Source: a virus
Taxonomy: Duplodnaviria > Heunggongvirae > Uroviricota > Caudoviricetes
Length of the DNA: 17,400 nt
Virus record (IMG/VR): IMGVR_UViG_2802429221_000010
Strand: one strand, 5' to 3'
Part shown: one piece after another, positions 2,454 through 15,411 of the stretch
Layout of the letters: each line of letters starts with the position of its first letter
Numbering within the stretch: the stretch's first letter is position 1
Made by a program: the position numbers and the translations under genes
The notes under the pieces: model-generated
What the model was told of the DNA's origin: nothing
Seen by the model: the letters and a program-made list of their open reading frames with translations, nothing else
Database searches by the model: none

Positions 2454-2531
2454 TTAAATGGCTACGGGGCCAGAAGCCCCAGCTATCCACCAGCAAATAA
2501 AAAGTAACTTAATTCGATAGCAGGAGTTTTT

Positions 2532-3332
2532 ATGAAACTGCGAAAAACGCCCGTACAGGGGCAGGGCTTCGTTCGGCCTGAAAACCAGAATCTGCAAAAT
2601 TTCGGCGAAATTATCCCGATTATTTCCGGCGTTATTGGCGGGAGTGAAACCACTATTGTTAGCGCCAGAGCGTTACATAAGGCGTTAGGTGTAGGGCGCG
2701 TTTTCCGTTCGTGGATCAAGGGGCGCATTGAAGAATACGGGTTCACGGAAGGCGTGGATTATGAGGTTGTTGAATATTTGAGCCGACCCGATCCGGTGAG
2801 CGCAAAATCTCGCCAGCAAACCGCTCTTGAGTACATCATCACAGTGAACATGGCAAAAGAACTGGCGATGGTCGAACGCACCGAACAGGGCCGCGCCGTT
2901 CGTCAGTACTTCATCAAATGCGAGGAGGAGCTACACAAGGTAGCGCCAGTGCGTTCCGCAGCGTTACGCCGGGAACTGAAAGCCCGTATCACAGTTGCCA
3001 GCTACTTTAAGCCAATGTGTGCCGCGTTGGAGGCGTACCGGGCTGAACTGGGTAAAAACACGTTCCAGCACCACTACACCACGGAAGCCAATATGCTGGC
3101 GCGTATCGTGCTGGGTGGCATGACTGCAAAACAGTGGGCGCAGGCGAACGGCATCACAGGCGAACCACGCGACCACATGAGCACGTTGCAGCTTGAGCAC
3201 CTTTCTTACCTTGAGCAGAGCAATATCACGCTGATTGAGTTAGGCCTGGACTACCACCAGCGGAAAGCTGAATTAATTCGTCTTTCGCAGCGTTGGTTAG
3301 CCCGTCGCATGGAGGAAAACAGCCATGTGTAA
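2532..3332 (+). CDS. Phage antirepressor-like protein (AntA/AntB-type N-terminal domain)
   Basis: 266-aa ORF with AGGAG Shine-Dalgarno. Segment SARALHKALGVGRVFRSWIKGRIEEYGFTEGVDYEV resembles the AntA-family core. Domain assignment is from memory, not a search. Confidence 0.65.
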   Translation: MKLRKTPVQGQGFVRPENQNLQNFGEIIPIISGVIGGSETTIVSARALHKALGVGRVFRSWIKGRIEEYGFTEGVDYEVVEYLSRPDPVSAKSRQQTALEYIITVNMAKELAMVERTEQGRAVRQYFIKCEEELHKVAPVRSAALRRELKARITVASYFKPMCAALEAYRAELGKNTFQHHYTTEANMLARIVLGGMTAKQWAQANGITGEPRDHMSTLQLEHLSYLEQSNITLIELGLDYHQRKAELIRLSQRWLARRMEENSHV

Positions 3333-4863
3333 CGCTCTGACCGTTACAAAAAGAGAAAGCGCCCCGTTGCCGGAGCGCCTTTGTGAACGAATAGCCTACT
3401 GCGCCATATTGCTTACTGTCTACGAGGCAGATTATAGCGTTGTGGTCGCACAGAGTGAAGGCGCTGATCACCGTTACTACAGCACGCCAGAAATGCAGAA
3501 TATTTTGCTGCAAAATGTCGTTGGTCACGCTGTCCGGAAAGCAAAAAATTTTGCTGGTAGCGCGACTGATGCGATTTTGTCAGGTCGCCAGGTGATGATC
3601 AATCTGATGTCTAATTTCGTTCTGGATAAAACAAAGGCGACCGCAGAGGGCCACCAGTGGGAAAGCTACACACTTGAACACATCGCCAACAATGCCAGAT
3701 TTGCGGCTGGTGGGCAATGTGATCAGTGTGCTGGCTTGCTGGTGGGCTATTCCTGCTCTTTAACATTGCCATGCCGCGATGTTTTCCAGGTATGCGACCC
3801 CATTTTTGTGCGCCTGTACTCTTTAAGGAATTTCTCAAGGATAAACGCACAGGGCGCGAATCTGTCTGACTCATATTCGTACGCTATCTTTCTGCGCTGT
3901 CTTTTCCGTGCCGGTGATGGTGTATTGGTTGATTCTTTGTTGGTCATTCTGTGTACCTGTAAAGCAATGCGCCGGAGTTCCTCACACCACGGCGATGATA
4001 GTTATTATTCTGATTCTTTGGCCTTGCGGCGCTGGAGTTCTTCACGTGCGACGGTGACGAGTTGCCCGATCTCCTCGACAGCTTTGACTCCGATTTTTTC
4101 CACCTGCGCCAGTGCATTGAGCGAAGAAACCAGGGGATTTTCTCCGCTTCCTTCTGCCTGGCGGCGGGCGATCTCACCACGCATGGCGGTTACTATGAAT
4201 CCGGCGTTGCTTTCGCCGTCCAGTTTTACGGATTCCATGCCTTCAAAAGCATCATGTGGGATACGAATTGAAATCTGTTTTGATTTGTCGTTGATAGTGT
4301 TTTTTGCCATGTGCATTCTCCTAAACAAAAGATGTGATTCAGTATACACAAAAAAGAATCACAAAAAATACTTGACCTGTGATTCAGTTAAATTTAATTT
4401 AAATCACACCTCAGTAAGAGGATGTAAACGACAACGCCCCGAACTGTTTGCGGCAGTAGCGGGGCGTCTAACCAAACCGTTAAATGAGGTAACGATTATG
4501 GCTGGGGCACAGCATACCCAAACTCACCCTAAATTTATATACACCTTCCTGGCGGTGCACCGTGATTGCATGGCTGACGGTAAAAACACTGTTCATGTAG
4601 CCGCCGATACGCTGGTTGATGCCTGCGAGATGCTCAATGACATGGGCTATATCTCGGCAACATGGAAAGGGCGCGAAGAAAACACGTTGTTTATTCAGAA
4701 ATGCGAAAACAATTTTATCTGGCGTTTTATCGCCCTGAGTACGGCACAACCGCGCGTGATTCACATCGAGGCCACCAGCGAACAGGAAGCACGCCAGCAA
4801 TCTCCTGATGGCTGCGTGATGGTATTCGCTGCCCATATTCGCCAGGAGGTGGAGCATGTGTAA
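3325..4863 (+). CDS. ORF of uncertain extent: translationally coupled start, plausible coding N-terminus, remainder probably not a real 512-aa protein
   Basis: ATG at 3325 overlaps the upstream stop (ccATGTGTAAcg). First roughly 120-160 codons have protein-like composition. From about 3800 the translation turns Ser/Cys/Arg-rich and low-complexity, runs antisense through the RHH-like gene (4005-4310) and its operator region, and ends in frame with the better-supported start at 4498. Confidence 0.25.
   Translation: MCNALTVTKRESAPLPERLCERIAYCAILLTVYEADYSVVVAQSEGADHRYYSTPEMQNILLQNVVGHAVRKAKNFAGSATDAILSGRQVMINLMSNFVLDKTKATAEGHQWESYTLEHIANNARFAAGGQCDQCAGLLVGYSCSLTLPCRDVFQVCDPIFVRLYSLRNFSRINAQGANLSDSYSYAIFLRCLFRAGDGVLVDSLLVILCTCKAMRRSSSHHGDDSYYSDSLALRRWSSSRATVTSCPISSTALTPIFSTCASALSEETRGFSPLPSAWRRAISPRMAVTMNPALLSPSSFTDSMPSKASCGIRIEICFDLSLIVFFAMCILLNKRCDSVYTKKNHKKYLTCDSVKFNLNHTSVRGCKRQRPELFAAVAGRLTKPLNEVTIMAGAQHTQTHPKFIYTFLAVHRDCMADGKNTVHVAADTLVDACEMLNDMGYISATWKGREENTLFIQKCENNFIWRFIALSTAQPRVIHIEATSEQEARQQSPDGCVMVFAAHIRQEVEHV
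4005..4310 (-). CDS. Ribbon-helix-helix-like small DNA-binding protein; candidate element repressor
   Basis: Translation MAKNTINDKSKQISIRIPHDAFEGMESVKLDGESNAGFIVTAMRGEI has a beta-strand then helix pattern typical of RHH (CopG/Arc) folds. AGGAGA sits 6 nt before the ATG at 4310 on the minus strand. Divergent from the + strand gene run, with palindromic repeats between. Confidence 0.6.
   Translation of the reverse strand: MAKNTINDKSKQISIRIPHDAFEGMESVKLDGESNAGFIVTAMRGEIARRQAEGSGENPLVSSLNALAQVEKIGVKAVEEIGQLVTVAREELQRRKAKESE
4330..4412. promoter_or_regulatory. Divergent promoter/operator region with TGTGATTC inverted repeats
   Basis: TGTGATTC (4333-4340) and GAATCACA (4355-4362) form one palindrome; TGTGATTCAG (4377-4386) and AATCACA (4402-4408) form a second. 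A TTGACC -35-like hexamer (4371-4376) lies between them, with a possible -10 TAATTT about 17 bp downstream. Confidence 0.45.
4498..4863 (+). CDS. Hypothetical protein, 121 aa
   Basis: ATG at 4498 preceded by GAGGT 7 nt upstream, located downstream of the promoter/operator region. Globular-looking composition. Stop overlaps the next gene's start (gcATGTGTAAtg). Confidence 0.5.
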   Translation: MAGAQHTQTHPKFIYTFLAVHRDCMADGKNTVHVAADTLVDACEMLNDMGYISATWKGREENTLFIQKCENNFIWRFIALSTAQPRVIHIEATSEQEARQQSPDGCVMVFAAHIRQEVEHV

Positions 4864-5080
4864 TGCAACATGGCCTGATGCAGCGGTAGACGCTATCAAA
4901 ACGCTGATGGATTCACTTATTGAGATTTCTGCTATCGCTGGTGTGGCGCATAAACACGCAGCCAGAGAATCAGAATGCATCTCCCATTATTTAGCATTTG
5001 TGCAGCTGAAAGCCGATCAGGCACTGGATAAGGCCGGAAAAATTATCATGGCTGATGTGCAGGAGGTGCACCATGCATAA
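4856..5080 (+). CDS. Hypothetical small protein, 74 aa
   Basis: AGGAGG 6 nt upstream of the ATG. Start overlaps the upstream stop and its stop overlaps the next start (ccATGCATAA). Begins MCNA, like the ORF at 3325. Confidence 0.5.
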   Translation: MCNATWPDAAVDAIKTLMDSLIEISAIAGVAHKHAARESECISHYLAFVQLKADQALDKAGKIIMADVQEVHHA

Positions 5081-7954: not shown

Positions 7955-7981
7955 TACGAAATTTATAAGCTGAAACGTAAA

Positions 7982-8319
7982 GGTAGACGGTTGGTAGACA
8001 GATTCACTTAACCCTCTACCAACCATCTACCAATTAATATTTTGAATTATAAAGATATTTTCAATGTGGTAGAGAGGTAGACAGTTATTTCTATATTCCT
8101 AAACCACGGGGGGTATATAAAAAACAGATAGTTAAGGGGGCATTTTTTAAATTTCTCTTTTAACTGTCTACACTGTCTACCATTTAGTAAAAATCATTAA
8201 TTATCAATGTATTAATGCGGTAGACCGTTGGTAGACAGTTTGCAGATTGTTTTTTTGTTATGTGTTAATAACATTAAATAAATCAATCAATTATATCGGT
8301 AGACAGTTGGTAGACAGTT
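7982..8319. repeat. Iteron array / putative replication origin of the element
   Basis: Six copies, in both orientations, of a doublet of GGTAGACAG-like units: ggtagacggttggtagacag (7982-8001), inverted copy (about 8012-8033), ggtagagaggtagacag (8069-8085), inverted copy (8163-8181), ggtagaccgttggtagacag (8219-8240), ggtagacagttggtagacag (8298-8319). Interspersed with AT-rich spacers, directly 3' of the primase-helicase gene. Confidence 0.7.
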
Positions 8320-8337
8320 GTAACGATGGGGCAAAGC

Positions 8338-8868
8338 ATGACTAAGCTGACCATTAACAGAAAACCAAAAGGTATTTACGGCACGCCGCAGAAAACGACG
8401 CAGGCGGCGCAGCAGCAGGATAAAACCACATCGGCGCATAAAGTGATGCCCGGTAACCAGAAAGCGCAGCAGAAGCCCACAGGGGCAACACCGTGGCGGC
8501 ATATGACCAAACGGCAGCGAAAAAACCGCAGACGCGTTAACCGCCTCACTGAGTTGTGGCCTGAATTATTCAGCCGGGAAGCACCGAAGCCGCTTAAGGT
8601 GGGGATATTCGACGACCTGATGCAGGATCTCGCCGTCAGGGGGCTGGCATTCGGGCCAGGGGCATTGCGTGCGACGCTGGCATCTTATGCGCAGTGTCCG
8701 CGCTATTACCGCGCCTTAATGGCTGGTGGGGTACGCTACGACCTGAAATGCCAGCCGTGCGGCGAGGTGACACCACAGGAACAACAGGACGCAGAAACGC
8801 GGCTGGTTGCGCTGAATGAGAAACGCAAACGTCAGCGTCGGGCAGCAAAGGAGAAAACAGGCGCATGA
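8338..8868 (+). CDS. ProQ/FinO-domain RNA-binding protein
   Basis: Segment PLKVGIFDDLMQDLAVRGL...LRATLASYAQCPRYYRALMAGGVRYDLKCQPCGEVTPQEQ aligns with E. coli ProQ N-terminal domain (PLKIGIFQDLVDRVAGEM...[39 protein letters not shown]). N-terminal half is basic and low-complexity. Start could be 8326 or 8338. Confidence 0.8.
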   Translation: MTKLTINRKPKGIYGTPQKTTQAAQQQDKTTSAHKVMPGNQKAQQKPTGATPWRHMTKRQRKNRRRVNRLTELWPELFSREAPKPLKVGIFDDLMQDLAVRGLAFGPGALRATLASYAQCPRYYRALMAGGVRYDLKCQPCGEVTPQEQQDAETRLVALNEKRKRQRRAAKEKTGA

Positions 8869-9152
8869 TTCACGACAGCAAAGCGGAAGCTCTGGAAGCG
8901 CGTGGTCTGTACCGGAGAGCGGCGGCGCGGTGGGCTGAGGTCATCATGCTGGCGAATGATGACAAGGCACGGGAACAGGCGGCAAAACGTCGCGCGGAAT
9001 GTATCCACAAGGCAGCACGCCCACCAGCAAGGCAGGATAATTTCGGGGAGATGCGCAAAACCATCAGCCGGGCACATGCCGGGATGGGATTACATCAGCC
9101 CAATGGTGAGGCATTCAGGAAATACCAAAAAAAGAACAATTGTAGTCAGTAA
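8865..9152 (+). CDS. PerC-family transcriptional regulator-like protein
   Basis: 95-aa ORF with ATGA overlap onto the upstream stop. N-terminal SKAEALEARGLYRRAAARWAEVI resembles the PerC/Pch signature as I recall it; not checked by search. Confidence 0.6.
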   Translation: MIHDSKAEALEARGLYRRAAARWAEVIMLANDDKAREQAAKRRAECIHKAARPPARQDNFGEMRKTISRAHAGMGLHQPNGEAFRKYQKKNNCSQ

Positions 9153-13424: not shown

Positions 13425-14480
13425 GTGTCTACACAGAAAATTGAAGAAAAATTTACATCTGCACAAGATGCATTAGTAATTCAGCAATCCGATTTATCAT
13501 TAAAGTCACTTTCTGATATGGTTGAATTAGATGCAGTAGATATAAGTCCAAAATATCAGAGAAGGGAGCGTTGGACTGCGGAGAAAGAGTCAAGTTTGAT
13601 TGAATCATTCTTGCTAAACATCCCGGTCCCGCCAATTTATCTCGCAGAGGATAGATATGGAATCTACTCAGTAATAGATGGAAAGCAAAGAATAACGGCT
13701 ATAAATAAATTTTTAACAAATAAAATGAAACTCGTGGAATTAGAAAAATTTCCAGAGTTAGAAGGGTTCTATTTTAAAGACTTACCCCAACCTCTTTCTA
13801 ATGCATTAAGCATCCGACCATATTTAAGAGTGGTCACATTATTGCGCCAATCTGACCCAGACTTAAAGCATGAAGTCTTTCTGAGATTAAATAAAGCAGG
13901 AGTATCTTTAAATTCTCAAGAGATAAGAAATGTTGCTTTTAGAGGGGATTTAAATGATGCTCTTATTGAACTGTCGGATACTCCATTTTTAAAAGAAATG
14001 CTTAAATCAAATAAAAATACTAAAATTTACCAAGAAATGGGAGATGTTCAGTTTGTGTTGAGGTTTTTTACTGTGTTTGATTTGTGGGAAAATTTTCCAG
14101 GTAATATGGATAAAGCTATGGATCTATTTATGGCGAAAAAATCTCGCAGCTCAATTCAAGATGTTAACGAAATGAAGCGGTTATTTTTGCGCTCAATTCA
14201 TTTTTGCGAGACGGTGTGGGGTAATGATGCATACAAAAGAATTGATAACAGTCAACGCGTAATTCAAGGTATGTATGATGTCCAGATGGTTTGCCCTGCC
14301 TTTTTACAACAAAATGAATATGATCATGCCATGGAAAATGCTGCTGATGTAAGACGACTCTTAGTTGATGAACTTTCAAATAATGCGGATTTTCTTGAAT
14401 CAGTGACTCAGTTCACGTCTAACCCAAGAAATATTGCATATAGAATATCACACTTCTGTGACCTTCTGAGAAGAATTTAA
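13425..14480 (+). CDS. DUF262-domain protein (ParB/Srx-like NTP-binding domain as in GmrSD-type enzymes N-termini)
   Basis: GTG start with AAGGG 7 nt upstream. N-terminal motif ISPKYQRRERW (13548-13580) fits the DUF262 P-x-(F/Y)-Q-R...W box; DGKQRITA (13677-13700) fits the DGQQR box. AT-rich. Stop TAA 14478-14480 lies 1 nt before the next ATG. Confidence 0.85.
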   Translation: MSTQKIEEKFTSAQDALVIQQSDLSLKSLSDMVELDAVDISPKYQRRERWTAEKESSLIESFLLNIPVPPIYLAEDRYGIYSVIDGKQRITAINKFLTNKMKLVELEKFPELEGFYFKDLPQPLSNALSIRPYLRVVTLLRQSDPDLKHEVFLRLNKAGVSLNSQEIRNVAFRGDLNDALIELSDTPFLKEMLKSNKNTKIYQEMGDVQFVLRFFTVFDLWENFPGNMDKAMDLFMAKKSRSSIQDVNEMKRLFLRSIHFCETVWGNDAYKRIDNSQRVIQGMYDVQMVCPAFLQQNEYDHAMENAADVRRLLVDELSNNADFLESVTQFTSNPRNIAYRISHFCDLLRRI

Positions 14481-14481
14481 T

Positions 14482-15411
14482 ATGCCTATTCCAGCGAAGG
14501 ACAATTTGCTAAAAAGAATCCTGTCTGTAGATAATGCAACTCAACTACCAGCACTTATCGATAAAGATGTTATGCAGGAACAACACAATATCACAGCTAA
14601 TCTTCTGAGAAAAGGCTTAGGTATAGTAGCATTTAATATTCTGGAAGATTTTATAAAATCCAGAACTATAGAAATGTTTGATTTTATATCTAATGCACGT
14701 GTGAGATTCGAGCAGTTACCCGATTCTTTTAGAATTGCAGCAACAAATGGTGCATTAAGAGGATTAGTATATCAGGCTGGATTAGAAAAGAAAAATAATG
14801 GAGATTGGTTGGCACTAATACATTCTGAGGCCAAAAGTATTTTTTCAACGTCGCAATTTCCTTATACATTATCTCGAGTATCACTTCTTTCAGATGGTTC
14901 TAATGTTGGACATGATGATATACCAGAAGTAATGAAGTGTCTTGATATAACTGGTGGGTGGAAGACATTACAAAAAATATCGAACGATATTGGTGGTGGT
15001 ACATTAGATCTGAATGCTGCTTATAAAAATATGTTTTTCGATAGAAATAGATGTGCTCATGAAGCAGGTTTTAATTATCCATATACCTCTCTCGATAATT
15101 CTTTAAATGACATTGTTACTATTGCTTCTGCATTTGACATAGCGTTAACTACTCGTTGCAGGTATATAGAAAAACAACCTAATTTACCGCTTTCAGCTCA
15201 TAAAGAAAAAGATCCGTTTTCATATCGGTTTTTAATCGCTGATGGAGATGTTTTTCGAGAGAAAAAATCATTAGAACCTGGTGCGAAAACAATAAAAAAA
15301 TGGAGTAATATCTCTGATGCACAATCTAATTTAATTCCTAAGCTAAGACTCCGCGATGAGTTTTTGATTTATATAGGAAAACAGAGAAGGCTTAGTGATT
15401 GGTATTTGTGA
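14482..15411 (+). CDS. Hypothetical protein, 309 aa, with a HEPN-like R-x4-H motif; partner of the DUF262 gene
   Basis: Tightly coupled to the DUF262 gene (TAAtATG). Contains FDRNRCAHEAG (R-x4-H at 15043-15060), compatible with a HEPN RNase active site. No DUF1524/HNH-like (D/E)H-x-x-P motif seen. AT-rich. Confidence 0.75.
   Translation: MPIPAKDNLLKRILSVDNATQLPALIDKDVMQEQHNITANLLRKGLGIVAFNILEDFIKSRTIEMFDFISNARVRFEQLPDSFRIAATNGALRGLVYQAGLEKKNNGDWLALIHSEAKSIFSTSQFPYTLSRVSLLSDGSNVGHDDIPEVMKCLDITGGWKTLQKISNDIGGGTLDLNAAYKNMFFDRNRCAHEAGFNYPYTSLDNSLNDIVTIASAFDIALTTRCRYIEKQPNLPLSAHKEKDPFSYRFLIADGDVFREKKSLEPGAKTIKKWSNISDAQSNLIPKLRLRDEFLIYIGKQRRLSDWYL

Follow-up and report, generated by a model that had tools for sequence, protein, structure and literature searches.

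A 512-codon open frame across an opposed repressor cassette in a PICI/P4-related island, a candidate enlarged counterpart of P4 eta/kil

The DNA analysed here is a stretch of 17,400 nucleotides (nt) from the IMG/VR virus record IMGVR_UViG_2802429221_000010 (Caudoviricetes), referred to below as the window. Its plus strand contains an open reading frame (ORF) of 512 codons that runs from an ATG at 3325 to a TAA at 4861-4863, and that is open from stop to stop from 3301 (520 codons). A first-pass annotation had described a frame opening at 3325, staying open for 1539 nt, crossing an operator-like region and joining an in-frame ATG at 4498, and these coordinates were confirmed. Our analysis shows that five parts make up the frame: a start overlapping the stop of an AntA gene, 414 nt without codon periodicity, the antisense of two genes, a divergent region of 187 nt, and an Icd/Kil gene of 121 amino acids (aa). 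This arrangement is compared below with the eta/kil frame of the satellite P4.

The gene upstream of the frame encodes an AntA/AntB protein of the Bro network (2532-3332, plus strand; PF08346 AntA, E 2.5e-23), and the long ORF starts across its stop. At this translational coupling junction (3309-3332, plus strand) a GGAGG precedes the ATG at 3325, which lies inside ATGTGTAA, 5 nt ahead of the AntA stop at 3330-3332, so that the two reading frames overlap by 8 nt within this motif. Junctions of the same type, a Shine-Dalgarno (SD) sequence followed by ATGNNTRA with an 8-nt overlap, occur near-verbatim at 3325, 4856, 5073, 5431 and 5657. These five junctions join AntA, the long ORF and four small ORFs into a chain (AntA to o66), of which the downstream four are bona fide genes of the same operon. 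The next gene, o74 (74 aa, phrog_5146; 4856-5080, plus strand), is coupled to the stop of the long ORF via a second ATGTGTAA. Because its start has this SD and ATGNNTRA junction in common with four genuine genes downstream, the long frame is most probably meant to be translated. Further along the operon, the coupling from DUF4222 to the primase is a GTGA overlap.

The frame ends in an Icd/Kil-like gene of 121 aa, which is nested in frame (4498-4863, plus strand) and is matched by NF033153 with 78 bits at residues 73-116. This gene has its own ATG at 4498 with an SD (GAGG) at ~4484, in a context, EVTIMAGAQHTQTHPKF, that is similar to the start of P4 kil. It is a tandem duplication of the Kil unit, as residues 1-46 and 73-121 each match the single Kil of L007, L009, L011 and L015, and in most relatives there is a single unit of ~65-70 aa; Icd of P1 has 73 aa. 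When the complete 512-aa ORF is searched, NF033153 aligns to residues 464-507 with 73.2 bits. The Icd domain, which spans ~48 residues in the family, thus covers 44 of the 512 residues, and it is the 121-aa nested product that fits the NF033153 family and not the 512-aa product. Judged from the sequence, the frame resembles a conventional protein in its C-terminal 121 codons only.

Two genes lie under the frame on the minus strand. The first-pass annotation had noted that the frame runs antisense through a ribbon-helix-helix (RHH)-like gene; this gene is real and belongs to the YlcI/YnfO family, but a second antisense gene, of 66 aa, had been missed. The 66-aa gene (m66; 3747-3947, minus strand) matches phrog_21027 over its full length (1-66 of 65 profile positions, E 6e-31), is annotated by the NCBI pipeline PGAP in L001, L002, L020 and L022, and has members of its 90% cluster on hundreds of contigs. 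The YlcI/YnfO-family gene (101 aa; 4005-4310, minus strand, ATG at 4310) is divergent from the Icd gene and scores 64.5 bits with NF041551 (cutoff 30) and E 8e-57 with phrog_6522, while PF07704 gives 15.5 bits, under its cutoff of 28.3. Both minus-strand genes are called by PGAP in the closest E. coli relatives. A profile of 12 YlcI homologues gave Arc (E 0.12) and CopG proteins (E 0.8-1.1) as its top matches in the PDB, which are weak and extend over the strand-helix-helix region. The product is a probable RHH repressor, and we infer from the sequence that it represses the cassette. The proteins encoded by both genes end in K-E-(Q/S)-E-stop, and part of the ylcI 3' end occurs a second time upstream of the 66-aa gene (3930-3985 versus 4011-4045, repeats D2 and D5). 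These repeat sites look like in-phase recombination joints for cassette exchange.

Two hairpins downstream of these genes fit terminators of a ylcI-m66 transcript. Both resemble intrinsic terminators. The first (3346-3381, minus strand) has an 11-bp stem at 3356-3381 and a T-rich tail, and folds with -22.6 kcal/mol in the minus-strand RNA (z -5.3), the plus strand being weaker (z -2.8). The other, just downstream of the 66-aa gene (3626-3655, minus strand), has a stem at 3636-3655 and the tail TTTGTTTTAT, with z -3.4 on the minus strand and an unstable plus strand (z -0.5); its element AAAACAAAGGCGGCC...GGCCGCC is kept across genera. The peptides KRESAPLPERL and KTKA, which the long frame encodes at the first and the second hairpin, respectively, are conserved over genera because of these minus-strand hairpins and A-tracts. 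No significant fold was found on either strand at 3685-3760, and a C4-type RNA in the stretch 3620-3760 was ruled out by negative Rfam scans. A minus-strand ORF of 87 aa (3611-3874) overlaps the 66-aa gene out of frame, and its start, MSQTDSRPVRLSL, recurs in L002 and, in a diverged form, in L010 from Shigella. This ORF is probably not a gene, since it runs through the terminator hairpin. Between the divergent ylcI and Icd genes lies an intergenic region of 187 nt (4311-4497) that resembles a divergent promoter/operator, with direct repeats of TGTGATTCAGT at 4333 and 4378 and inverted partners.

To characterise the parts of the frame that are read in no other gene, we counted the variable sites at codon positions 1/2/3 over eight related sequences. 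In their own frames the real genes give 21/27/67 for AntA, which is dominated by the third position, 3/4/20 for Icd, 11/8/22 for the 66-aa gene and 14/21/36 for ylcI. In the frame of the long ORF, the counts are 38/36/40 for 3333-3746 and 21/15/22 for 4311-4497. The segment 3333-3746 (plus strand), which is read in the ORF frame only, therefore shows no constraint at the amino-acid level, and it is free of stops. It also has no family match, as the N-terminal 142 residues of the long ORF retrieved nothing from Pfam, NCBIfam or PHROG, and AlphaFold gave them a mean pLDDT of 43 and a pTM of 0.30 from a shallow alignment of 19 sequences, which is consistent with no fold. The first 120-160 codons, which had been taken for protein-like, thus do not behave as such. 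Ser, Cys, Arg and Leu make up 39% of the central part of the long ORF versus 24% and 16% of its flanks, and its rare-codon content is not distinguishable from that of the other frames. A tblastn search of the long ORF against phage genomes gave only weak partial matches, P4 not being among them. From the numbers of variable sites, ~4.5 nonsense changes are expected in 3333-3746 and ~3.5 in 4311-4497, and none was acquired in the eight relatives. Indels are multiples of 3 in the close relatives, and the single-nt indels of L020 and L021, which are more divergent, add up to multiples of 3. The parts that belong to the ORF only evolve like non-coding DNA, and amino-acid constraint is absent outside Icd.

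The absence of stops is far from what is expected of such DNA. Over 3301-4707 there are 0 stops in the frame, compared with 23.0 in shuffled sequences, and none of 2000 shuffles was stop-free; the other two plus-strand frames have 23 and 32 stops over the same interval. The probability of no stop in the shuffles is 0.0009 for 3333-3746, 0.42 for 3948-4004 and 0.010 for 4311-4497. For the antisense parts, synonymous codons were redrawn with both minus-strand proteins held fixed, and the probability of no stop given the protein is 0.16-0.18 for the 66-aa gene and 0.26-0.30 for ylcI. The parts that are antisense to genes are unremarkable on their own, and it is the non-genic parts that are remarkable as stop-free; the joint probability of a stop-free frame in the window is ~2e-7. 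A further regularity is found on the repressor side. In 16 of 16 repressor genes, of the YlcI type and Arc-like, the long frame runs in the wobble-coincident antisense phase with 0 stops, whereas the codon-aligned antisense phase, which is a priori about as permissive, has 1-5 stops in each of the 16. The conditional probability of no stop, as a product over 13 distinct repressor genes, is ~1e-7. The YlcI-type and Arc-like repressors align as one strand-helix-helix pattern and have Arc and CopG as their best, though weak, PDB matches, and a shared ancestry of the two types may explain the common antisense phase.

The same frame, which we call the bridge, was then followed in relatives. In those from E. 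coli and E. ruysiae the flanks are shared and the internal modules differ, and the frame is open from the AntA-coupled ATG to the Icd stop, with 518 open codons in L001, 443 in L002, 291 in L003, 344 in L005, 536 in L020 and 520 in L022. The element is also carried by the strains E. coli K56-43-un (99.6% identical) and ARS-C101. In L021 (E. coli SA31-1, 2477-4041) the distance is covered by two frames of 331 and 225 codons that overlap by ~100 nt. This locus carries an Arc-like RHH gene, and the peptide of its second frame resembles an out-of-frame reading of the C4-RNA region of L006, which suggests that L021 may combine protein immunity with RNA immunity. Many 'Icd-like' entries of 214-248 aa in the protein database are read-throughs of the bridge frame with other middles; in one of them, P0001 (234 aa), the first 142 residues found in the window are joined directly to the Icd part.

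A scan of other Enterobacterales species, with one genome per species and the Icd C-terminus as the sole query, returned 15 loci, of which 14 were informative, and an intact bridge is present in 13 of the 14. In nine of them a frame of 284-418 codons ends in kil. The remaining five are short in the kil frame and have a long open frame in a different phase (219-292 codons in four of them), and a bridging frame that differs from the kil frame either ends at the kil start or continues through kil in another phase. In L007 (Pectobacterium) 292 codons extend from the AntA stop, antisense through the repressor gene and through kil out of frame, and enter the next gene in frame; L008 has the same layout with 267 codons. 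In L006 (E. albertii) a frame of 219 codons begins ~160 nt after alpA, crosses isrK and C4, reads kil out of frame and ends shortly ahead of the kil stop, and in L010 (Shigella) 267 codons end at the kil start. The fifth, L014, has 107 and 146 codons with one stop between them, and, without upstream int and alpA, looks like a remnant. The ATGNNTRA geometry between bridge and upstream gene recurs in L007, L008 and L019, from other genera (Pectobacterium and an Enterobacterales metagenome-assembled genome), and elsewhere among the loci the bridge starts with ATGA overlaps or after gaps of 8-9 nt. In most loci examined, the first ATG of the bridge overlaps the stop of the upstream gene or sits within ~10 nt of it.

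The IMG/VR scan yielded 425 loci, and 74 loci could be analysed, which represent 37 distinct upstream cassette types. Open frames of 200-653 codons that end at the kil stop, AT-rich promoter regions included, occur in 35 of the 37 types. The longest, in L087 (1695-3656), spans 653 codons across two tandem YlcI-type cassettes and includes a remnant kil start, and the bridging frame of L042 (1416-3236) has 606 codons. The open frame is thus beyond chance, and it is under selection to stay open in many lineages, since it recurs intact across species loci, IMG/VR cassette types and P4.

The closest known counterpart is the eta/kil region of P4. There, the frame that ends at kil is open for 217 codons, with the vis stop overlapped by its start, ATGATGATG, and with the isrK/seqA and C4/CI RNA genes inside it; the P4 Eta C-terminus matches NF033153 at 146-193 with 73.3 bits, and P4 Kil has 65 aa. 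According to Forti et al. 1999, as reviewed in PMC10111431, P4 kil is a nested short product expressed from an internal constitutive promoter, and translation of eta blocks termination, so that transcripts from the late promoter read through. PMC10111431 also presents Eta as a recognised protein product that has no assigned function. The two frames are alike in several respects. Both are long ORFs coupled to the stop of an upstream gene in the AlpA/Vis operon, and both have an in-frame Icd/Kil end with its own start (NF033153, 73 bits in each). The frame in the window also runs through a putative counterpart of the internal immunity region and promoter of P4, made up of the divergent operator-like repeats and the probable RHH gene. 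The islands also share homologues of int (38%), Vis/AlpA (37%) and the alpha primase (50%). In contrast, the frame in the window has 512 codons and that of P4 eta 197-199, and a two-gene protein cassette in opposite orientation (the 66-aa gene and YlcI/YnfO), with an operator region, takes the place of the C4/CI RNA and seqA/isrK. The frame in the window is antisense to real genes for ~500 nt, unlike in P4, and its upstream partner is AntA, one gene downstream of AlpA, whereas in P4 it is Vis. Outside the kil part there is no sequence similarity to Eta, the kil start being the sole BLAST match between the long ORF and P4 Eta, and anti-termination by the present frame is proposed by analogy.

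A second parallel is the immI region of phages P1 and P7 (c4 RNA, icd, ant), for which Biere, Citron and Schuster reportedly found in 1992 that translation of icd is required for transcription to reach ant. There, as proposed here, translation of an Icd-family gene is tied to read-through downstream, and an Ant-type antirepressor gene is part of the operon. In the window, however, the Ant-type gene is upstream (the order is reversed), c4 RNA is absent, and the translated tract would be the long spacer before icd and not icd itself. The frame can likewise be compared with classical Rho polarity in leader-peptide or upstream-ORF control, where ribosomes on the nascent RNA would deny access to Rho and nonsense codons are expected to be polar; it differs from those cases in that the tract has 390 codons, its product is unconstrained and it overlaps two genes on the opposite strand. 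The order of the integration genes (int, AlpA), the Bro gene (AntA) and a D5-type primase, with PerC downstream, corresponds to the 'Bro zone' of Gram-negative phage-inducible chromosomal islands (PICIs), as set out in Mageeney et al. 2023 (PMC10111431), and to EcCIMP1 at proA-thrW (PMC11773190); the closest E. coli relative adjoins proA and tRNA-Thr. The passages of these two articles that were searched describe Bro proteins and immunity RNAs, and mention no stop-free frame antisense through a protein repressor cassette. Eta-like frames are likewise absent from articles on P4-like satellites and on EcCIMP1, and an additional search of full texts yielded no other source.

We think it rather probable that the 512-codon frame is an enlarged bridge of the P4 eta type, kept free of stops for the transit of ribosomes that shield read-through RNA from Rho. 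It is best read as an eta-type bridge that grew by the insertion of modules, with a protein immunity cassette now in the place of the CI RNA. By comparison with P4, we infer that the frame is traversed by ribosomes on transcripts from an upstream promoter, and that Rho is the terminator avoided. Such transcripts would begin upstream in the AlpA/AntA operon, in analogy to those of P4 PLL, and AntA would hand over its ribosomes by termination and reinitiation at ATGTGTAA. The ribosomes would then cross ~1.2 kb of RNA that is otherwise non-coding or antisense, first at the 3' terminators, then opposite the repressor-side genes (the 66-aa gene and YlcI) and finally through the operator, and by translating without interruption they would guard the read-through RNA against early termination by Rho. 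Transcripts from the upstream promoter would not respond to the local immunity cassette and would extend into kil and the replication genes, with antisense transcription through the repressor genes as a side effect. Icd/Kil could be expressed separately from the internal divergent promoter region, and the peptide made from the middle of the frame would be immaterial.

Three other explanations have to be weighed against an eta-type bridge. The frame may be translated by design for a purpose other than protection from Rho, as a coupling chain to the kil and replication genes, to stabilise an antisense RNA against RNases, or to silence YlcI and m66 by convergent transcription. The unbroken chain of five SD and ATGNNTRA junctions from AntA to o66 would suit such a role, as would the position of the frame antisense to a probable repressor in every locus, and the bridge of L007 and L008, which ignores the kil frame but enters the next gene in frame, fits the delivery of ribosomes downstream. 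We nevertheless consider it unlikely, because the effect of P4 eta that has been tested is on transcription termination (Forti et al. 1999, as reviewed in PMC10111431), and because kil and the downstream genes have SDs of their own and so no obvious need for delivered ribosomes. These options are, moreover, compatible with the anti-termination model. Less likely still is a genuine long protein, an N-terminally extended Icd/Eta that functions over its whole sequence. The 512-aa Icd-like entry at NCBI with its many near-identical full-length copies, the frame kept open among relatives, and the recognition of Eta as a product in P4 all point in this direction. They are outweighed by the flat codon-position counts outside Icd, by the exchange of internal modules for unrelated sequence with the frame still open, by the four species in which the bridging frame is not the kil frame, by a middle that lies opposite two genes, each backed by its own family matches, and by the N-terminal 142 residues, which lack a family match and have a pLDDT of 43.

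The frame could finally be a neutral by-product of stop-poor antisense phases and recombination at in-phase module ends, or a chance run or recently disrupted gene, which we judge very improbable. Each antisense gene alone has a 16-30% likelihood of being stop-free, the repeated 3' ends at the module borders (D2, D5) would hold the phase on exchange, and some copies are frameshifted. But the shuffle probabilities of the non-genic segments (0.0009 and 0.010) and the joint value of ~2e-7, together with the presence of the frame in 13 of the 14 species loci and in 35 of the 37 types of cassette, exclude the chance antisense frame that the first-pass annotation had put forward, and the codon-aligned antisense phase always has stops. 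That annotation had also offered a disrupted gene or lost stop, for which an earlier, ancestral stop would be conserved somewhere; it occurs in no relative, and P0001 joins the N-terminal 142 residues straight to Icd. Its remaining option, a recombination junction, is right in that the ORF is a mosaic, yet the frame stays open across every combination of modules seen, up to 653 codons. The neutral reading is strongly disfavoured.

Several observations weigh against the proposed eta-type bridge. Module exchange at the conserved in-phase 3' ends (K-E-Q/S-E stop) could passively keep the frame at the junctions. A scan of 4311-4497 for consensus sigma-70 promoters was empty, and windows of C/G ratio showed no clear Rho utilization (rut) site, the only rut-like signals, at 4300-4416 and 4729, being weak. 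The long frame is missing from two cassette types in IMG/VR (6 of 74 loci), which carry cargo genes between alpA and kil, and some E. coli copies have frameshifts in the N-terminal part (P0017-P0021 and P0024), so that at least some elements, which may be decaying, can do without the feature. In addition, C4, isrK and c4-a1b1 were not matched by Rfam (E <= 1) in the window, L001, L002 or L003, while P4 as the positive control gave 74.9, 60.8 and 44.1 bits, respectively. L006 also scores well, and is the sole species locus with C4 and isrK. As the immunity RNAs of P4 are absent, the immunity logic must differ here, and a terminator like timm was not located.

The public annotation of the locus is inconsistent, and describes it as a 512-aa 'Icd-like protein', as a 121-aa protein, or as an Icd pseudogene 'missing N-terminus'. 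At NCBI the identical 512-aa sequence is WP_236942341.1, 'Icd-like protein', with 65 members in its 90% cluster and 512-aa variants on >100 contigs. Homologues of the whole product, which the first-pass annotation had regarded as the sign of a genuine protein, therefore formally exist, but they do not imply a folded one. Its warning that annotation as one protein would be an error holds, as the name 'Icd-like protein' is misleading for the whole frame, because the middle is not a conventional protein and real genes occupy the opposite strand. The PHROG families 1743, 6196 and 6928 label Icd/Kil/Eta proteins as 'transcriptional repressor', probably a legacy of the obsolete P4 coding sequence 'cI gene product (AA 1-137)' (L004, 8168-8584).

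By its gene content, the window carries a PICI/P4-related island. The gene order is int, cargo, AlpA, AntA, the long ORF, small ORFs, DUF4222 and a D5-type primase, with PerC and ProQ downstream, and the Pfam domains Phage_integrase, Phage_AlpA, AntA and D5_N/DUF5906 follow the order of Gram-negative PICIs and are co-oriented. Late and packaging genes were not identified in the window. A tblastn search with all P4 proteins found int, vis and alpha only, sid, delta, psu and epsilon being absent from the window, which may not span the whole island. The cargo between int and alpA is an AT-rich ORF of 302 aa (1246-2154, GC ~0.30) that has no Pfam match; it contains a weak match to HOLDH RNA at 1838-2130 (E 0.012, far below gathering), and in relatives this position is taken by the int-alpA RNA motif (RF02996) and another gene. 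A long perfect hairpin right after the primase gene (7977-8062) is probably the operon terminator, and a sub-threshold 'Plastid-psbM' match there is spurious. In a GC-rich segment (0.60), at 8326-9152, a ProQ/FinO-domain gene is coupled directly to a PerC-family gene, a pairing context that is also on record for the E. coli PICI EcCIMP1. An AT-rich pair of GmrSD_N (DUF262) and HEPN RiboL-PSP genes at 13425-15411 is probable defence cargo, and is followed by a protein with a Trans_reg_C winged-helix domain (15994-17400, minus strand).

The nested eta/kil frame of P4 was already known, and what is new is a candidate enlarged counterpart that runs across a protein cassette. We are evenly divided on a broader proposition, namely that enterobacterial PICI/P4-related islands generally carry such a 'translational bridge', an ORF selected for transit that links AlpA/Bro to the kil-replication operon across an opposed repressor cassette, is always locked to the wobble phase and so constrains the codon choice of the repressor, and survives module shuffling. 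If so, it would be a widespread device for immunity bypass in >1000 E. coli genomes, mis-annotated in all of them. The bridge accounts for the inconsistent public annotation of the locus, and shows that a frame on the other strand can influence which codons a small repressor gene uses. It would be a concrete case of an ORF maintained because it is translated and not because of what it encodes, over a tract of 1.2 kb with two genes on the opposite strand, and its interest would be higher if the translation-only function and the generality were shown experimentally. It also suggests how satellites with protein (YlcI/RHH) immunity could still use a P4-style read-through from upstream that is insensitive to immunity.

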